Sequence record: OZ035756.1
Strand: one strand, 5' to 3'
DNA length: 64,000 nt
From: Tequatrovirus LF73P3
In this document: positions 1,484 to 27,526 of the stretch, one piece after another
How the letters are laid out: the number at the start of each line of letters is the position of its first letter
How positions within the stretch are numbered: the stretch's first letter is position 1
The notes under the pieces: generated by a model
What the model saw: only the letters and a program-made list of their open reading frames with translations
What the model was told of the DNA's origin: nothing
Database searches by the model: none
Program-made: the position numbers and the translations under genes

Positions 1484-1763
1484 ATTGAATAACCTTTAGT
1501 TGACGTTTTAGTTCTTTTATCATTTCTTCGTTCATCGCAATATAAAGATCGCGTAAAGCAGGTTTTAGCATTCCATTTACTGGAGAACTAAATGGACATA
1601 CATAATCTTTTCCTACGAGCTTTTTGGTGAATTCCATATCACAGAACTGAAATGCCGGTTCATTGGCATAAATTCCCCAATTAGTTGACATCATTTTATT
1701 AGCATATTCCAGTGCCTGGATTTGATTCTTAATTCCATCAATTTGAAACTTTTTAATATTCAT
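1467..1763 (-). CDS. hypothetical protein (98 aa)
   Basis: six-frame ORF, start/stop coupled to neighbours. Confidence 0.4.
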   Translation of the reverse strand: MNIKKFQIDGIKNQIQALEYANKMMSTNWGIYANEPAFQFCDMEFTKKLVGKDYVCPFSSPVNGMLKPALRDLYIAMNEEMIKELKRQLKVIQFGQGN

Positions 1764-2224
1764 TAGTAAAGGTCCTCAGAGTAAAGTTCTTTTTCACTAC
1801 CACCACGTTCAATACGTACTTGTCCGGCGTAAGTTGCAATAATCATTGCTTCTTCGCGTGTCCAGTAATTGCTATACTGATCAATAAACCCTTGGTCATC
1901 ATCACAAACTTGCTGAGTAACTAATTGAGGTTTAACTACATCTAAAACTTCTGCCATATCTTTAGAATAATGACGAGCACCTGGAATAACAAGAGTTCGT
2001 CCATCTTTTAATTTAAAACGGTTGGCGGCACAAACAATTCGTCGTTGATACTTTTGGTTTTCATCCCAGTATGCGGTCTGCCAACAGATTTCAGGAACTT
2101 CTTTCAGAATATCTTCTTCTGTGCATTTATAACCATGTGCTTTAAATTTTTCAACAAGACTTTCTGGAGTTTCACGAGATAAAGGAACATTCAGCATTTT
2201 TAAACGATTAATAAATGGGTTCAT
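1763..2224 (-). CDS. hypothetical protein (153 aa)
   Basis: six-frame ORF with 4-nt stop/start overlaps to both neighbours. Confidence 0.5.
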
Positions 2225-2550
2225 TTAAACCATCCTTTAATACGCTGCCACAGAGTTTTCTGTTGAGCTTTGTTAACACCAATTGAGCGAATAACTGGTT
2301 GAGATTCCTGGAATTCTTTATAATCAGCAAGGTAAATTTCGTAAGCTGCATCCGTAAATGAACTTATCGCCGCCATAAAATTATTGCGAATACCTACTGG
2401 AGCATCTTTACTTTCACGAATAATCATGTATTTACCAGTCTTAATCTTTACGATAGTTCCAAGATAAGCTCCATGATACCAGATATCCCACCCCTCTTGA
2501 GTGGGTTCTGCACAACGACGAAGTTCATTAACAATTTCTAACTTGTTCAT
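2221..2550 (-). CDS. hypothetical protein (109 aa), motA-adjacent
   Basis: six-frame ORF immediately downstream of motA. Confidence 0.45.
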
Positions 2551-2560
2551 TATTTATTCC

Positions 2561-3196
2561 TCACAGTTCAGATGCTACGGTGATTACTGCTTCAATGTTT
2601 TCTGCCGAGCGTTTAATGTCAAGATACACATTACCGTTTTTAGCGATTTTACATGACATACCGATATCAGTGAATTTTTGAATATGATGTTCCATCATTT
2701 TGTATCCAAAAATTCGCATATTTCCATTGTTATTAATTTCAAAATTACGAATTCCGTGAGTGCGTTTTTCTAAAATAGCAAGATAGTTACTGCGGTAAGT
2801 TTCAACCTTTTTAAGAACAAATCCATTTTCATCTAAAAGTTTTAGCATAAGGTCTTTATCTTCTTCCATATCGGAAGTAATCTCACGAGCTTTACGAGTT
2901 ACTCGTTTTTTCAGTAGTTCAGGAGCATTTTCCTGTGCATATAAAGTTGCCGCATTTGAAATAATATCCTGAGCTTCACCAGTAATGATTAATCCATCAC
3001 CAGATTTCTCTACCAGACCTTTTTTAATCAATACCCCAATATTACTATTAACTACTGCGTTACCTAAATCTAGATGCACCTCACGAACTTCTGCAGCTGT
3101 AATGAAATCTTTCTTAGCAATGGTAATTAAAATCGCAGCAGTTTTTTCATTCAGAACATCGTTAGAAGCTTTGATGATGTAAGTTACTTTAGACAT
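2561..3196 (-). CDS. motA: MotA middle-transcription activator
   Basis: 211 aa, MSKVTYIIKASNDVLNEKTAAILITIAKKDF...; length and sequence as recalled for T4 MotA. Confidence 0.8.
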   Translation of the reverse strand: MSKVTYIIKASNDVLNEKTAAILITIAKKDFITAAEVREVHLDLGNAVVNSNIGVLIKKGLVEKSGDGLIITGEAQDIISNAATLYAQENAPELLKKRVTRKAREITSDMEEDKDLMLKLLDENGFVLKKVETYRSNYLAILEKRTHGIRNFEINNNGNMRIFGYKMMEHHIQKFTDIGMSCKIAKNGNVYLDIKRSAENIEAVITVASEL

Positions 3197-13855: not shown

Positions 13856-14128
13856 TTATTTAAAACGGATAGTCGAATCCTTGAAGAATAGACCAGAACA
13901 CACGGTTCCTTCTACTTTCTGCCCAGTAGGTCCAATAGCACGAAATCCAGTATGTTGGAAATCATTTTCAGAGCAACCGAACCAGTTATATCCAGTGATT
14001 TCAATATTAGTAAAACCGCTTGAAGACAAAACTTTGGTTGCATTATCAGCATCAGTACATCCTACTAAAGATACTGCTAATACTAATGCCGCGATAGAAC
14101 GATTAACATATTTCATAATTTCACTCAA
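13856..14128 (-). CDS. putative lipoprotein (90 aa)
   Basis: signal peptide with lipobox LVGC (…AALVLAVSLVGCTD). Confidence 0.5.
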   Translation of the reverse strand: MSEIMKYVNRSIAALVLAVSLVGCTDADNATKVLSSSGFTNIEITGYNWFGCSENDFQHTGFRAIGPTGQKVEGTVCSGLFFKDSTIRFK

Positions 14129-14492
14129 ATTTAATGGCTTGAAGGAGACTAATAATTCTCAAGCGACTTCTTTCATCTTTAACTGTAAAAGAAAGAGGGT
14201 CACCAGATTTCATAGTAATAGTGCATTCAAAATCAAAATCTTCGGGAACTTCTTCGAAGAAGTCAAATTCTTCATCATATATTAGAACATTACTCTGAAA
14301 ACTGTGAAGAATTTTTCCGTCATTTCCAGATGCTGTACTAATCATTGTAACATTATTACCTTTCATATCTTCAACGATAAATTCGCTTGTAGATATTACG
14401 GCATTAATAGAACCATTCCTATAAATAGCAGAAAATAGATATTTCTTTTCTTCACCTTCGCGAATGCGATATTTCTTACCAATTTTAAACAT
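14121..14492 (-). CDS. hypothetical protein (123 aa)
   Basis: six-frame ORF. Confidence 0.45.
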   Translation of the reverse strand: MFKIGKKYRIREGEEKKYLFSAIYRNGSINAVISTSEFIVEDMKGNNVTMISTASGNDGKILHSFQSNVLIYDEEFDFFEEVPEDFDFECTITMKSGDPLSFTVKDERSRLRIISLLQAIKFE

Positions 14493-16593: not shown

Positions 16594-17094
16594 TTATCTC
16601 ATTTCAATAAAATCTACAAGTTCAGCATGGGATTTACGGAACATTACTTGGTGTCCGCCAATGATAACTTCATCTTCAGGAACTTCGTATACAGCAAGAT
16701 AAAATCCTTTAGAAGATAATTCTTCACGTTCTTCTCGTGTGAACCATCTCATCATATCATATTCACTAGCGAAAGCAAAATGATAAAGAGCTATAAACCA
16801 TCCTGGAATATGATATTCTACTCCAACATAATCTTTCTTGAACTTAGTATTAATTACTATATTAGCGTTTTTAACTAATAGTTTATCTTCGTATGGTAAA
16901 GGAATTCTTTTATTATTATCGCTATGATGCATAAAATTAGGTCTACTATAACCTACACGTAATAGCCACTCTTCGCTCCATGAATCTATTATACTCCTGT
17001 ACGGCGTTATTTGAACACAAAGATTTCGACGTATTGTTATAGCATCTTCATAATCAAGAATACTAAACGATGATTCAACACGATAAATTTTCAT
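16594..17094 (-). CDS. hypothetical protein (about 166 aa; start trimmed to ATG with SD GAGGA)
   Basis: track start 17133 lies upstream of the promoter at 17122..17151. Confidence 0.45.
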   Translation of the reverse strand: MKIYRVESSFSILDYEDAITIRRNLCVQITPYRSIIDSWSEEWLLRVGYSRPNFMHHSDNNKRIPLPYEDKLLVKNANIVINTKFKKDYVGVEYHIPGWFIALYHFAFASEYDMMRWFTREEREELSSKGFYLAVYEVPEDEVIIGGHQVMFRKSHAELVDFIEMR

Positions 17095-17121
17095 TTTATT
17101 ATCCTCAGTAGCTATGGTGTT

Positions 17122-17151
17122 ATAATACCACAACTAACCGAGGAAGTAAAC
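17122..17151 (-). promoter_or_regulatory. Early promoter (GTTTAC, TGGTATTAT)
   Basis: minus-strand GTTTACttcctcggttagttgtggTATTATAA. Confidence 0.55.
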
Positions 17152-17157
17152 AACTTT

Positions 17158-17841
17158 TTATCGTTTTGTTGGAAGAGACAGAGGATCGCACTCTTCCTCT
17201 GACGGAGCATCTTCAAGACCCATAGCATATCGCAAAGCATACTTCATCATCAGGATGTCTTTCGCACAATCATGAATAGAATCATGCGCAACGAATCCGT
17301 CTAAAGTTCCCTTTGGAAGAGGACATGTGGTCATATCACGAACAAGCAGAAGTGCTTCAATTCTGGTACGAATATCACGCTGATTCCAGAATTTACATGG
17401 TTCTAACTTAAATGTATCAAGCTCATTCTCAGAAACGCCGTTAAAACGTTGAATATCGCGAATGAGATCAACTAAAATTGGAAAATCAAACGACATTCCA
17501 CGGCACCAGCCTTGAGATTTCCAAGGATCGATGTTATGTGCATTGATGTAATCATTAAATTTTGCAATACCATCGATAGTGCTTACATCTTCATCCGATG
17601 GTGCAATATTTTTTCGAGCTTCAGGAGATTGATTTTTCCACCATTCGATAGTGCTTTTAGTAAAAAGACGATGTCCTTTTTGGCTTTTTAAATCAAACTT
17701 GATTTTAATGCCGCGTGAAACTAATTCATCAAATGTTTCAACTACTTCTGGATTAGGGTCAAAGGCAATAACAGCTAAGTCAATAACAGCTGCCTTTTCA
17801 CCGCTTCCCATTGTTTCAAAATCTATAATAAAATCAAACAT
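17158..17841 (-). CDS. dexA: DexA exonuclease A (DnaQ-like 3'-5' exonuclease)
   Basis: 227 aa from ATG at 17841 (MFDFIIDFETMGSG... Exo I motif); track start is an upstream GTG. Confidence 0.8.
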   Translation of the reverse strand: MFDFIIDFETMGSGEKAAVIDLAVIAFDPNPEVVETFDELVSRGIKIKFDLKSQKGHRLFTKSTIEWWKNQSPEARKNIAPSDEDVSTIDGIAKFNDYINAHNIDPWKSQGWCRGMSFDFPILVDLIRDIQRFNGVSENELDTFKLEPCKFWNQRDIRTRIEALLLVRDMTTCPLPKGTLDGFVAHDSIHDCAKDILMMKYALRYAMGLEDAPSEEECDPLSLPTKR

Positions 17842-18094
17842 TAATAATCGCCTTATAAAGATGGCTAATTTCACCTAAAATATAATCACTGATTGTGACA
17901 GTTTTCACTCTACCGCAAAAGAATTCTAACGCAGTCAAATCTCGTTCAATTTCTTCCAATTGAAGCATTAACTTACTAGACTCAATTTTTACAGTTTCAT
18001 AATTTTTACTATAAGATATTTCATAAATTTCGCTTACTTTATCTTGAAGAAGATAAAACTGATCTTTAGTTATTTCCACGAATAGCTTCCTCAA
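17834..18094 (-). CDS. hypothetical protein (86 aa)
   Basis: six-frame ORF. Confidence 0.4.
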   Translation of the reverse strand: MRKLFVEITKDQFYLLQDKVSEIYEISYSKNYETVKIESSKLMLQLEEIERDLTALEFFCGRVKTVTISDYILGEISHLYKAIINV

Positions 18095-24509: not shown

Positions 24510-24719
24510 TTAAATTACATGACTATTTATAATAAATTCTTGCGGAACGTTAAAATACCCAATTTTAGTTAATATAACAACATCACCGTTAATAATTACC
24601 GGAGAATAATCGGCTGGAGCATTAAACTTCCAATGAGCTCTAATATTATATCCATCAGAACCAAATGCTCGACTAGCCGGTCTCCCGGCTTTTTGCCATG
24701 CATAAAAATCAAATTTCAT
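24510..24719 (-). CDS. hypothetical protein (69 aa)
   Basis: six-frame ORF where T4 carries segF. Confidence 0.4.
   Translation of the reverse strand: MKFDFYAWQKAGRPASRAFGSDGYNIRAHWKFNAPADYSPVIINGDVVILTKIGYFNVPQEFIINSHVI
24524..24531 (-). promoter_or_regulatory. Late promoter TATAAATA for soc
   Basis: exact TATAAATA on minus strand about 30 nt upstream of soc ATG. Confidence 0.6.
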
Positions 24720-24916
24720 TTTGAATGCACTATAATTAATTTTAAGGCTTCTTCATGCACCTTACCTAATTGTATATGTCCAGTTTTAATTGTGTAAGCT
24801 TTGTGGAGCTGATTAGATAAGAGCTTGTATGTGAGCTCCTTGTCATAATTTTTAAATAGCTGGTCAATACGTTTCTTGTGGGCTTTCTTAAGCTGGCGTT
24901 TATTTAAACGAGCCAT
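24716..24916 (-). CDS. hypothetical basic protein (66 aa)
   Basis: six-frame ORF. Confidence 0.4.
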   Translation of the reverse strand: MARLNKRQLKKAHKKRIDQLFKNYDKELTYKLLSNQLHKAYTIKTGHIQLGKVHEEALKLIIVHSK

Positions 24917-25434
24917 TAATAACCTCGGTCTTGACGAGCGAAGTTTTCAGCATTTTTCAGATAATAAAGTTTAAAGATTTCTTCAGCCGTAAGACCGAGG
25001 CCTTGGAACATGTTCAGAACGAAATGAAGAATATCAATCATTTCGAATTTAATTTCCAACTGGTCTTGTGGAGACAAATCAGTAATCAGAGTTTCACGTC
25101 GTTCACCATGTTGAGCTTTCCAAGGCTTCCATACAGCAGATGCATCTTTTTCACCATTGCTCATACCACCAAGAGAAGTCAGTAGTTCGCGGAATTCATC
25201 ATCAATATAATCTTTCTGATTACGCAGCCAATCAACAACTTCACCCGCAGTAGCCAAATCATCAGGATGACGGTTATATTCAGGTTTATCTTTAGCTAAA
25301 CGAACCTGTAGAGATTTCTGCATATCAAGCATAACTTGCAGAGGGTCTTTTTCATCACCGAGAATATCCCAGTATTCATTTTGAGCTTTATCAGCGCCTT
25401 CAATCAGTTGTGAACATTCGTTAAAGTATGCCAT
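24916..25434 (-). CDS. 56: gp56 dCTPase/dUTPase (MazG-like)
   Basis: 172 aa from ATG at 25434 (MAYFNECSQLIEGADKAQNEYWDIL...); track ORF is extended by 31 hydrophobic codons without SD. Confidence 0.8.
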   Translation of the reverse strand: MAYFNECSQLIEGADKAQNEYWDILGDEKDPLQVMLDMQKSLQVRLAKDKPEYNRHPDDLATAGEVVDWLRNQKDYIDDEFRELLTSLGGMSNGEKDASAVWKPWKAQHGERRETLITDLSPQDQLEIKFEMIDILHFVLNMFQGLGLTAEEIFKLYYLKNAENFARQDRGY

Positions 25435-25505
25435 TATTTTTCCTTTCAATTCATGGGTTAGTAGATTAATTATACAATAAATATATAAAGCAATAAGGAG
25501 GATAT

Positions 25506-25706
25506 ATGGTACAAAAATTAATGGCACTTGTTAATGCCATAAAAGGTAATAAAAAACGTATAGCTTTTACTATTTCTGCTATGGTAGGAATTTTACTCTG
25601 GAATTTTATTTTATCACCAATTGCTATTGCTCATGGTGTTAATATTCCAGTAATTACTCTTGATACATTCGTAGATTTAGCATTTGCTTTAGTTGGGTTA
25701 ATTTAA
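25506..25706 (+). CDS. plus-strand small membrane protein (66 aa, two predicted TM helices)
   Basis: ATG preceded by AAGGAGG SD; fills the 56-61 intergenic space; stop overlaps gene 61 stop. Confidence 0.5.
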   Translation: MVQKLMALVNAIKGNKKRIAFTISAMVGILLWNFILSPIAIAHGVNIPVITLDTFVDLAFALVGLI

Positions 25707-26731
25707 ATCTTAGCGTATTTAGATAGCCGCATTTTAGCCATCAACCCTTGGGCAATATTATTTTTCATATATTCCATAATTTGTTTAGGGGTTGCACCTT
25801 CCTTTCTAATCATATCATTAACATCTTTTGATTTCCAGGGAGATTTATCCCAAAACATAACCCTTTCTCCTGCATCAACTAATTTAGTCATTCGTTTAAT
25901 AGTGTCAGGGTGACGAGGTTCATTATCTAAAACCCACACACGTCTATCTTTAAATGGAACAATTTCTAGGTCTAATTGACCGCCCGTAATAGCTATACCA
26001 TTTTCAATAAAAAGTGAATCTATAGGTCCTTCTAGAACATATACATCACCATCTTTGACTCGTTCGACTCCATAGATTTTTGTTGCCTCAGGATAAGCTT
26101 TGATGGTGATATATTTTTGAGGAGCATCTTTCTTTAATGCACGTCCTTGAAAAGACTCGGCTTTTCCGTTAGCATTATAAATTGGAATAACAAGACGAGG
26201 CTCAGGTATTTCCTTTTTATATGTTCCTGGTGCTATACTATTAACTAATTTAGGCCATTCAGTTGTAAACCAAAGATATTTCCATTTATCCTTTGGAATA
26301 CAACGAGCTTTTACATATTTTATAATTGGATGGTCTTCCGCCAGTTTATCTAATCTAATGCATGACGGAAGAGATTTAATTATTTTCTTCTCAGGTTGTT
26401 TAGGAAGTTCTTTAGGTTTTTCTACTGGACGACTTTTACCTTTTTCCTTTCTTATTTCAAAGATATACTCACGATATAAATCAGGTTCAAACTCCTTTAA
26501 ATATATTCCGATTGGTGCATGATAGTTACAGTTATAACAATGAATATTTCCTTCATTATTATCTCCATAATACCATCCACGGGCTTTATTTTGGTCGGTT
26601 TTTGAATCTCCACAAACAGGACATCTAAACCGTAATTTAAAAGTTGAACTATTATTTACTTGTGTGAATTTAGGTAAATGAGCTAATGCACGGTATGCAA
26701 ACTCATTATCAATCCAAGGTATTGATGACAT
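25703..26731 (-). CDS. 61: gp61 DNA primase
   Basis: 342 aa, N-terminal zinc ribbon CPVCGDS...CYNC, TOPRIM-like core; same length as T4 gp61. Confidence 0.9.
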   Translation of the reverse strand: MSSIPWIDNEFAYRALAHLPKFTQVNNSSTFKLRFRCPVCGDSKTDQNKARGWYYGDNNEGNIHCYNCNYHAPIGIYLKEFEPDLYREYIFEIRKEKGKSRPVEKPKELPKQPEKKIIKSLPSCIRLDKLAEDHPIIKYVKARCIPKDKWKYLWFTTEWPKLVNSIAPGTYKKEIPEPRLVIPIYNANGKAESFQGRALKKDAPQKYITIKAYPEATKIYGVERVKDGDVYVLEGPIDSLFIENGIAITGGQLDLEIVPFKDRRVWVLDNEPRHPDTIKRMTKLVDAGERVMFWDKSPWKSKDVNDMIRKEGATPKQIMEYMKNNIAQGLMAKMRLSKYAKI

Positions 26732-26733
26732 TT

Positions 26734-26898
26734 TTACTCTTCTTTTTCTTTAGATTCCTCTTTTTTCTTTTTAGGAATCTGTTCAGGACCTTTATTTACT
26801 ACAGCACCTGACGTTGTTCCAGTGGAGATATTTTCAGGATTACCACCTGAATCTCCAGCTACCATATCTTCTTTAATAAATTCTTTATATGTTTTCAT
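26734..26898 (-). CDS. small hydrophilic protein (54 aa), 61.1 position
   Basis: hand-translated MKTYKEFIKEDMVAGDSGGNPENI...KEE. Confidence 0.4.
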   Translation of the reverse strand: MKTYKEFIKEDMVAGDSGGNPENISTGTTSGAVVNKGPEQIPKKKKEESKEKEE

Positions 26899-26899
26899 A

Positions 26900-27526
26900 T
26901 TAACCTCTATTCATAAAAGCATTAAAAATTTGGTCATCAATAGAAACATCTACTTTAGACTGTTTTTCTGATGGTAATTCATATCCACATATTACAATTT
27001 TGTGATCAATATCAAAATACACAGAAGCAATATGATTAATGATGTTTTCAGTAAAGTCTAAATCAACATCAATATCTTTTTGACCACAGCCCAAAGGATA
27101 AATAATGCGAGTAATTCGATTATCTTTAACAAAGATTCCACCGACATACTCTGTGCTGCGTTTAAAGTCTACACGCCGACGAAATGAAAAATATTCAGGC
27201 TCTTTATGAGCTCGGCTCATAGGACACAACGAGTAACTAGAATAAGAGATGTCAAATCCTACGCCTTCAATATGAGCCAAAGTATTACGATTAAACCAAT
27301 TATAATCGTACGCCAAATCCATTAGATTATAATATGTAAAAGGCACCGGATTAACATCATTAGTCACAAGCACGTAATTAGCAATTGCTATAATTTCATT
27401 GTTTTTAACGAATACAAACCGTGATTGATGTGAATGACCTGGACCTGCGTTTTCACGATTAATGATATAACACTGGGCACCTTTATATTTGTATGTATCT
27501 TTGCACTTGTGCATTTGATAGAGCAT
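26900..27526 (-). CDS. hypothetical protein (208 aa), 61.2 position
   Basis: six-frame ORF. Confidence 0.5.
   Translation of the reverse strand: MLYQMHKCKDTYKYKGAQCYIINRENAGPGHSHQSRFVFVKNNEIIAIANYVLVTNDVNPVPFTYYNLMDLAYDYNWFNRNTLAHIEGVGFDISYSSYSLCPMSRAHKEPEYFSFRRRVDFKRSTEYVGGIFVKDNRITRIIYPLGCGQKDIDVDLDFTENIINHIASVYFDIDHKIVICGYELPSEKQSKVDVSIDDQIFNAFMNRG

Follow-up and report, generated by a model that had tools for sequence, protein, structure and literature searches.

Here we report the analysis of a short open reading frame (ORF) on the plus strand of Tequatrovirus LF73P3 DNA (sequence record OZ035756.1), located between the genes for dCTPase and DNA primase. The whole stretch of DNA that was analysed, referred to below as the window, is 64,000 nucleotides long; it belongs to a Tequatrovirus, and over 12 kb it is most similar to phage UGKSEcP2 (98.5% identity). 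The interval contains the following genes and signals.

24916..25434, minus strand: gene 56 (dCTPase), the left neighbour of the ORF, with its ATG at 25434
25495..25501, plus strand: Shine-Dalgarno (SD) sequence AAGGAGG, 4 nt upstream of the ATG of the 66-codon ORF
25506..25706, plus strand: the 66-codon ORF, with ATG at 25506, stop codon TAA at 25704-25706, and a product of 66 aa
25703..26731, minus strand: gene 61 (DNA primase), the right neighbour, convergent with the ORF
25703..25706, both strands: palindrome TTAA, common to the TAA of the ORF (plus) and the TAA of gene 61 (minus)

The gap between genes 56 and 61 is 268 nt in the window, and the product of the ORF has the sequence MVQKLMALVNAIKGNKKRIAFTISAMVGILLWNFILSPIAIAHGVNIPVITLDTFVDLAFALVGLI. 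The peptide IAFTISAMVGILLWNF... of this product is very hydrophobic. All real genes adjoining the 66-codon ORF are encoded on the minus strand. Reading of the ORF and of the surrounding sequence confirms two observations of the first-pass annotation of this DNA, namely that a plus-strand ORF with a strong AAGGAGG SD sequence lies among minus-strand neighbours, and that its stop codon overlaps that of the convergent gene 61, the overlap being the TTAA palindrome. In the first 50 kb of T4, each annotated gene is located on the strand opposite to the ORF, and the 66-codon ORF alone reads the other way across more than 50 kb of genes that run counter-clockwise on the T4 map. The ORF listing of the window includes many chance ORFs of 25-97 aa, so that ORF length alone is weak evidence for a gene; it is conservation across phages that lifts the 66-codon ORF above chance.

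In T4 (NC_000866), the dam gene occupies positions 16846..17625 between genes 56 and 61, where the first-pass annotation had placed it, and the 309-bp gap between dam and gene 61 holds the counterpart of the ORF, at 17738..17938 on the plus strand. This counterpart is equal in length to the window ORF and has an identical SD sequence and an identical TTAA stop overlap, and the two proteins differ at 3 of 66 residues. It is unannotated in NC_000866 and AF158101, and is annotated in the independently sequenced T4T record as dam.1, a hypothetical protein (ADJ39749.1). In RB32, the gene is named RB32ORF030w and described as 'similar to RB69ORF029w', the latter being its name in RB69. All these names refer to the same gene, which encodes a protein of 65-66 aa on the plus strand and converges on gene 61. 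Nothing of substance sets the window gene apart from dam.1 of T4; since the window lacks the dam cassette, its gene lies directly against the gene 56 promoter. The earlier idea that the ORF stands in the place of T4's dam was not upheld: T4 carries the two genes next to each other, and the ORF is therefore not a dam replacement.

The absence of a methyltransferase-sized ORF, also noted previously, holds within the 64-kb window. A tblastn search for dam in the window gave no match better than E 0.76, no DPPY motif or dam-like ORF of methyltransferase size (~260 aa) was found within it, and its sole [DNS]PP[YFW] motif is located in a 107-codon frame. The dam-less junction of the window type is present in 322 of 502 matching records, and the T4 junction with dam in 180 of 503. 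A Dam protein at least 90% identical to that of T4 was found in only 182 records, and dam is carried by about 36% of Tequatrovirus records. Records with a T4-type Dam (182) are about as many as those with dam beside the ORF (180), which suggests that phages lacking dam at this junction do not have it elsewhere in their genomes. Relocation of dam was rejected on the agreement of these counts and on its absence from the window. The dam gene is an accessory cassette that was inserted or lost upstream of the ORF, and its absence here is unrelated to the ORF.

A tblastn search with the ORF protein matched 692 phage records, one of them with 100% identity, and in 686 of the 692 the match extended over at least 80% of the length (scored as intact). 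Of the matched records, 190 are less than 60% identical and still syntenic, the tblastn identities in Mosigvirus and Gaprivervirus being ~46-54%. Identity of the protein is 95-100% within Tequatrovirus and ~52% to RB69; between Tequatrovirus and Mosigvirus it is 52%, compared to 74-84% for gp61 and gp56. The location of the ORF is constant in about ten Tevenvirinae genera, the groups in which it was found to face gene 61 from the plus strand being Tequatrovirus, Mosigvirus, Gaprivervirus, Dhakavirus, Kanagawavirus, Gelderlandvirus, Moonvirus, and Marfa-type Klebsiella phages. In each lineage examined, it is encoded on the strand opposite to all of its neighbours and ends at the gene 61 stop codon or a few bases from it. 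The upstream neighbour varies and can be gene 56, dam, or unrelated small genes, while the adjacency to gene 61 stays. The 4-nt stop overlap is also present in T4, RB32, RB69, the VR26 paralogue, Marfa, JS98, CIP9, and CF1, and a GGAG(G) SD sequence with equal spacing precedes the ORF in all lineages examined. In-frame conservation among related phages, on which the first-pass annotation had made its reading depend, was thus found.

By the Nei-Gojobori method, dN/dS is 0.05-0.2 in comparisons inside Tequatrovirus and inside Mosigvirus; comparisons between genera have saturated dS. Variable sites number 26, 7, and 38 at codon positions 1, 2, and 3, respectively. The ORF protein matches the profile phrog_2024, labelled 'unknown function', with an E-value of 3.5e-31 (residues 2-66 on profile positions 1-65 of 65). 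A second subfamily, designated type B and ~22% identical, was identified by profile search. Type B is represented by a tandem second copy in Gaprivervirus and by the only copy in Dhakavirus (JS98), Kanagawavirus, Gelderlandvirus, and Klebsiella phages such as Marfa; its matches in Moonvirus are weaker. Constraint on the gene is relaxed in Gaprivervirus, where the paralogue lies alongside (dN/dS 0.35-0.68), the second copy in TH40 is partly deleted and appears to be decaying, and truncated or frameshifted alleles occur occasionally (P0025-P0029 and ERS-1). Because of these occasional broken alleles and the relaxed constraint in Gaprivervirus, the ORF is probably dispensable in the laboratory. 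On comparative grounds, we regard the ORF as a true coding gene that is orthologous to T4T dam.1, RB32ORF030w, and RB69ORF029w, belongs to PHROG 2024, and is kept beside the primase 3' end across the enterobacterial T-even phages; we consider a chance ORF or a purely non-coding element to be excluded. Hundreds of T-even genomes already carry an annotation of this gene as a hypothetical protein.

The early and middle transcripts of T4 are of one polarity, which is that of the minus strand here, and the late ones use either strand (Geiduschek and Kassavetis, PMC2988020). With early and middle transcription confined to the other strand, the ORF would be transcribed late, and a putative late promoter was identified upstream of it.

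25476..25483, plus strand: AATAAATA, which differs from the T4 late-promoter box TATAAATA by A at -13 and precedes the ATG of the ORF by 23 nt (inferred)

Late, gp55-dependent promoters have a TATAAATA-type box at about -13 to -6 and need no -35 element. Among the 50 T4 late sites listed in the same review (PMC2988020), 32 have the perfect TATAAATA box and nine have A at -13, which is the commonest variant. Such boxes are scarce in the window: the AATAAATA at 25476-25483 is one of only four occurrences of VATAAATA in 128 kb of strand, compared to 29 expected, the perfect TATAAATA occurs twice (9.3 expected), and NATAAATA is depleted ~6-fold. One of the two perfect boxes, at 24524-24531 on the minus strand, is the expected late promoter of soc, a late gene among early genes at a distance of 1 kb from the ORF. 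In the T4 late genes 49, inh, and I-TevI, AATAAATA is likewise located 23-29 nt before the start codon, with a short leader carrying the SD sequence. These three genes and soc have mapped transcripts or known late products, whereas the ORF is known from its sequence.

A TATAAATA-like box was found 16-23 nt before the ATG in 11 of the 12 lineages examined, within flanks that are unalignable, and its variants are distributed as follows.

Perfect TATAAATA: Marfa, ZX14, and CIP9
AATAAATA: the window/RB32 type, Mosigvirus, and JS98
GATAAATA: the T4 type
CATAAATA: Gaprivervirus
ATTAAATA: CGG4-1 and CF1

The twelfth lineage, metagenomic lineage L019, has no recognisable box before the ORF. T4's own box has G at -13, which is a rarer deviation than A(-13). 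No late promoter was predicted upstream of RB69ORF029w by Nolan et al. (2006). In a scan for sigma-70 promoters upstream of the ORF, none passed; the best candidate, TTCATG-17-TACAAT, was rejected for its poor -35 hexamer. Another rejected candidate is a MotA-like box within the ORF (TTTGCTTTA, 25683-25691, plus strand), which has no TAnnnT 11-13 nt downstream and was attributed to codon content. We consider it likely that transcription of the ORF is late and gp55-dependent. The gp55-RNA polymerase would use AATAAATA and start ~6 nt downstream of the box, and the resulting short leader, of ~17 nt, would carry the AAGGAGG sequence. The proposal of the first-pass annotation that the locus encodes a late-expressed small membrane protein is the best-supported reading of it; the late timing, as derived from the promoter box, stands as likely.

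Two further signals, both on the minus strand, overlap the region of the ORF.

25469..25494, minus strand: middle-promoter-like element for gene 56, with a MotA box tATTGCTTTA (25494->25486), an 11-nt spacer, and a -10 element TATAAT (25474->25469)
25511..25540, minus strand: hairpin ATGGCATTAACAAGTGCCAT (25540..25521) followed by a T-run; it falls within ORF codons 6-12, ~165 nt past the stop codon of gene 61

The element agrees with the middle-promoter consensus, (a/t)(a/t)(a/t)TGCTTtA at a distance of 12+/-1 bp from TAtaaT (PMC2988021), and the T4 record X01416 annotates an equivalent P(M)16.53 mot-box upstream of genes 56/69, at oriA. In the window, as in other dam-less Tequatroviruses, the spacer of this promoter contains the plus-strand AATAAATA; local conservation of the box in these phages could thus partly serve the gene 56 promoter. 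In T4, Mosigvirus, and Marfa, the late box and the gene 56 promoter are not nested, which indicates that conservation of the box tracks the plus-strand gene and not the minus-strand promoter. A change of AATAAATA to AACAAATA, which falls in the spacer of the dam-less gene 56 middle promoter, should spare that promoter.

The hairpin ATGGCATTAACAAGTGCCAT is the sole terminator-like site in the region 24800-26800 and is a possible attenuator or terminator of gene 61 transcripts. Both the window and T4 carry it, but it is not conserved in Mosigvirus, Gaprivervirus, or Marfa; being limited to Tequatrovirus, it was rejected as a conserved element. On the plus strand, no terminator was found within 1 kb downstream of the ORF, and between the ORF and gene 61 there is neither intergenic space nor a terminator. 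With nothing to stop it ahead of gene 61, late transcription must continue into the primase gene, antisense to its mRNA, probably as a by-product and at most as a secondary shut-off device; as a secondary effect, it could add to the late shut-off of genes 61 and 56. The RNA structure of the region is unremarkable, with folding z-scores of -0.98 and -0.94, and a search of Rfam gave no match.

Residues ~19-41 are the sole segment of the ORF protein that scores as transmembrane (Wimley-White octanol scale, -10.7 kcal/mol). For residues 46-64, which include D53 and D57, the octanol dG is ~0. The AlphaFold model (37-sequence alignment, pLDDT 79) has helices at residues 2-11, 15-42, and 52-63 and a loop at 43-51, and a single transmembrane helix, 21-41, was predicted by TMHMM for RB69ORF029w (Nolan et al., PMC1524935 supplement 2). 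Only one transmembrane helix, at ~19-41, is well supported by these data; the second of the two helices predicted in the first-pass annotation gains no support from the octanol scores, from helix 52-63 of the AlphaFold model, which has just 12 residues, or from the TMHMM result on RB69. The N-terminus has a net charge of +5 (KGNKKR) and the C-terminal part a net charge of -2, which favours an N-in/C-out orientation, with the N-terminus probably in the cytoplasm. No basic residue is found after position 18, and the C-terminus is hydrophobic (...DLAFALVGLI).

Across 37 diverse homologues from both subfamilies, W32, N33, P38, and G44 are invariant, L31, A40, P48, and G64 are at least 90% conserved, and position 53 is usually acidic. 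The core L-W-N-x4-P-x-A-x3-G-x3-P-x-V is matched by the ORF protein and is also present in CIP9 and CF1. With moderate confidence, we propose that the protein crosses the inner membrane once. Its N-terminal helix, basic and amphipathic, would lie on the cytoplasmic face, the transmembrane helix at ~19-41 would hold the invariant Trp32-Asn33 and Pro38, and a periplasmic tail of ~25 residues would contain the conserved G-x3-P-x-V-x-h-(D/E) motif and a short amphipathic helix. Taken as a whole, the explanation that the ORF is a T-even coding gene, transcribed late and specifying a single-pass membrane protein, seems to us on balance probable.

Searches for relatives of known function were made at the levels of sequence, profile, and fold. 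The ORF and its product gave no matches in Pfam, NCBIfam, PADLOC, PDB sequence profiles, or Rfam, and the BFVD folds likewise yielded no homology to a characterised protein. A phmmer search against 1.84 billion representatives retrieved T-even homologues only, plus three large repeat proteins (P0032, P0036, and P0037, with SH3, PQQ, or PKD repeats), which were rejected as spurious since their scores sum many weak stretches. Foldseek against viral models recovered only members of the ORF's own family. In the literature, no mention was found under the names of the gene or the peptide sequence, nor were T4 Ribo-seq or unannotated-ORF studies covering the locus. As a speculative function, the buried Asn and the periplasmic motif might bind another membrane protein of the envelope, or the protein might self-associate; the single basis of this proposal is the buried Asn beside Trp, of the type that drives helix-helix association. 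Equally speculatively, binding of a partner might modulate a late envelope event, such as the timing or inhibition of lysis, superinfection exclusion, or membrane-bound prohead initiation.

Other explanations of the locus differ in whether they give weight to the protein or to the DNA and RNA. The first-pass annotation had offered an antisense regulatory element as its second reading, and we consider it unlikely that the main role of the locus is late antisense transcription or promoter interference, in which transcription from AATAAATA would begin within the gene 56 middle promoter, proceed into gene 61, and late in infection silence primase mRNA and origin/56 transcription, the ORF being incidental or secondary. 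Such a role would be consistent with the overlapping convergent stop codons, which are kept in most lineages with no terminator between them, with the lack of a plus-strand terminator within 1 kb downstream, with the position of the window late box inside the spacer of the minus-strand MotA-box promoter, and with the fact that T4 transcribes both strands at several sites at different times (PMC2988020). However, the box is outside the gene 56 promoter in T4, Mosigvirus, and Marfa, lineage L019 has a hairpin terminator between the ORF and gene 61, and both the SD sequence and the ATG persist between genera whose dS is saturated. The purifying selection at the protein level, the ordinary RNA folding (z ~-1), and the lack of an Rfam match contradict a role that is only antisense or non-coding, although an antisense effect could coexist with coding. 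A combination of the two roles is a long shot: a bifunctional late switch would have its gp55 promoter back-to-back with a MotA-dependent gene 56/oriA-type promoter (in dam-less phages, inside it) and aimed at the primase gene, so as to yield a late membrane micro-protein of a new class, controlling an envelope step such as the timing or inhibition of lysis via its invariant intramembrane Trp-Asn motif, and, by promoter occlusion and antisense pairing, to shut off origin-primer and primase transcripts. At the other extreme, the ORF could be a product of chance in AT-rich intergenic DNA, conserved through the minus-strand signals of its neighbours (the gene 61 terminator and the gene 56/dam promoters), as might be suggested by the many chance ORFs of similar length nearby and by the minus-strand promoter-like and terminator-like sites in the interval. 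This explanation is effectively refuted by the comparative data, since the frame is open across at least eight genera with unalignable flanks, variation falls mostly on third positions with dN/dS far below 1, the minus-strand hairpin is confined to Tequatrovirus, and the ORF stays with gene 61 whatever lies upstream (gene 56, dam, or small genes).

Among the explanations that assign a function to the protein, a holin/pinholin-like or hok-like toxin that depolarises or permeabilises the inner membrane at the end of infection appears improbable. The ORF product is small, hydrophobic, and probably late, and the polar Asn in its helix could drive oligomerisation. The holin T, antiholin RI, Imm, Sp, and spanin PseT.3 proteins of T4 are likewise small proteins, anchored in the inner membrane or exported across it, that act on the envelope. 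The N-in/C-out single-pass topology predicted for the ORF product is that of holin T and the i-spanin. No sequence or fold similarity between these envelope proteins and the ORF product is detectable, and its periplasmic part is much shorter (~25 aa). Against a holin-like toxin, it has one confident transmembrane helix only, and the charged hydrophilic C-terminal tail of holins is replaced by the ...AFALVGLI terminus in a part of net charge -2. T-even phages already have a holin, T. The ORF is outside any lysis or exclusion cluster: it neighbours genes 56/61 and not the endolysin, holin t, or spanin genes, of which the T4 spanin genes are located at about 135 kb, far from the ORF, and holin t and endolysin e are also elsewhere in the T4 genome. 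A homologue with 89% identity is labelled 'Holin' in one UniProt entry, a label that has no evidence behind it. The antisense transcript overlapping a short hydrophobic peptide gene also recalls hok/sok-like type I toxin-antitoxin loci, from which the ORF differs in that the antisense partner would be the 3' end of the gene 61 mRNA, produced by read-through, and not a dedicated sRNA, none having been found in the Rfam search. We assign a similarly low probability to a late superinfection-exclusion or anti-defence membrane factor that blocks DNA entry of secondary phages or neutralises a membrane-bound abortive-infection effector. In its favour, the membrane protein diverges faster than its neighbours (52% identity compared to 74-84% for gp61 and gp56), paralogues have been duplicated and lost, and sp and dmd are ~2 kb away from the ORF, among many other host-interaction genes; however, the known exclusion genes of T4, imm and sp, are early genes, and neither PADLOC nor any other family search gave a match.

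The value of the gene for annotation is small, since the hypothetical protein is already annotated and is named dam.1 in T4T, although the canonical T4 reference (NC_000866/AF158101) omits this conserved gene, which is under purifying selection. If the protein does control a lysis or envelope event, it would be a new component of a phage system that is among the best studied. The gene is independent of dam, which is itself found in about a third of Tequatrovirus records, and it is the only one of opposite polarity in at least the first 50 kb of the T4 map, preceded by a conserved late-promoter box.

The core of the T4 late-promoter box is strongly avoided across the whole window on both strands. 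Two copies of TATAAATA were observed against 9.3 expected, and four copies of the variant core VATAAATA against 29.1 expected (both strands, whole window in each case), and all 100 shuffles gave a count of the late-promoter core equal to or above that observed. This avoidance is consistent with selection against stray gp55-dependent promoters in an early region. Late-type boxes on the plus strand, in addition to that upstream of the peptide gene, include the following:

14420-14427, plus strand: perfect TATAAATA, the sole perfect plus-strand copy in the window
27097-27104, plus strand: GATAAATA, inside gene 61.2 and antisense to it

The former lies within, and antisense to, the minus-strand gene 14121..14492, is followed by no ORF, and may represent a late antisense promoter. 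No plus-strand TATAAATA occurs within the first 50 kb of T4, and the 14420-14427 site is therefore not common to T4. The box in gene 61.2, which also has no ORF after it, is kept at the equivalent T4 position (19329, plus strand), and could reflect either chance or a further late antisense start.

Gene content varies on both sides of gene 56. In Klebsiella phage Marfa, two minus-strand genes of 252 and 93 aa (L017, the Marfa locus, 1871..2972) separate gene 56 from the peptide gene; neither has a Pfam match on record, and the 252-aa product is Dam-like in size. This arrangement confirms a variable cassette site upstream of the peptide gene. The interval between soc and gene 56 contains the following features in the window:

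24510..24719, minus strand: 69-aa ORF
24716..24916, minus strand: 66-aa ORF
24524-24531, minus strand: soc late promoter TATAAATA, falling within the 69-aa ORF

Where the window has these two small ORFs, T4 carries the homing endonuclease gene segF, whereas the interval is empty in RB32, and the comparison marks it as a further indel hotspot adjoining gene 56.

The peptide gene itself varies in copy number and type. Two paralogues are arranged in tandem in Gaprivervirus VR26 and VR25 (1701..1901, plus strand, in loci L012/L013) and are apparently translationally coupled, and in TH40 only about 119 nt of the second copy remain, with a frameshift (L005, 2693-2811). Marfa-type Klebsiella phages, Dhakavirus (JS98), Kanagawavirus ZX14, and Gelderlandvirus each have a single copy, which belongs to the second subfamily, type B. 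The product of the peptide ORF is misleadingly labelled in AP018813.1 (T2), OR125554.1 (BW-1), KU867307.1 (CGG4-1), and UniProt A0A482MZV5. The labels used across these records are 'Holin', 'dCTP pyrophosphatase', and 'putative head morphogenesis protein', for which no supporting evidence was found in this analysis.

In the metagenomic T4-like contig L019, no TATAAATA-like box is recognizable upstream of the peptide ORF, which does not overlap gene 61. Between the two lies a likely bidirectional terminator:

L019 3198-3208: hairpin CTAGGGcttgtCCCTAG followed by a T-run
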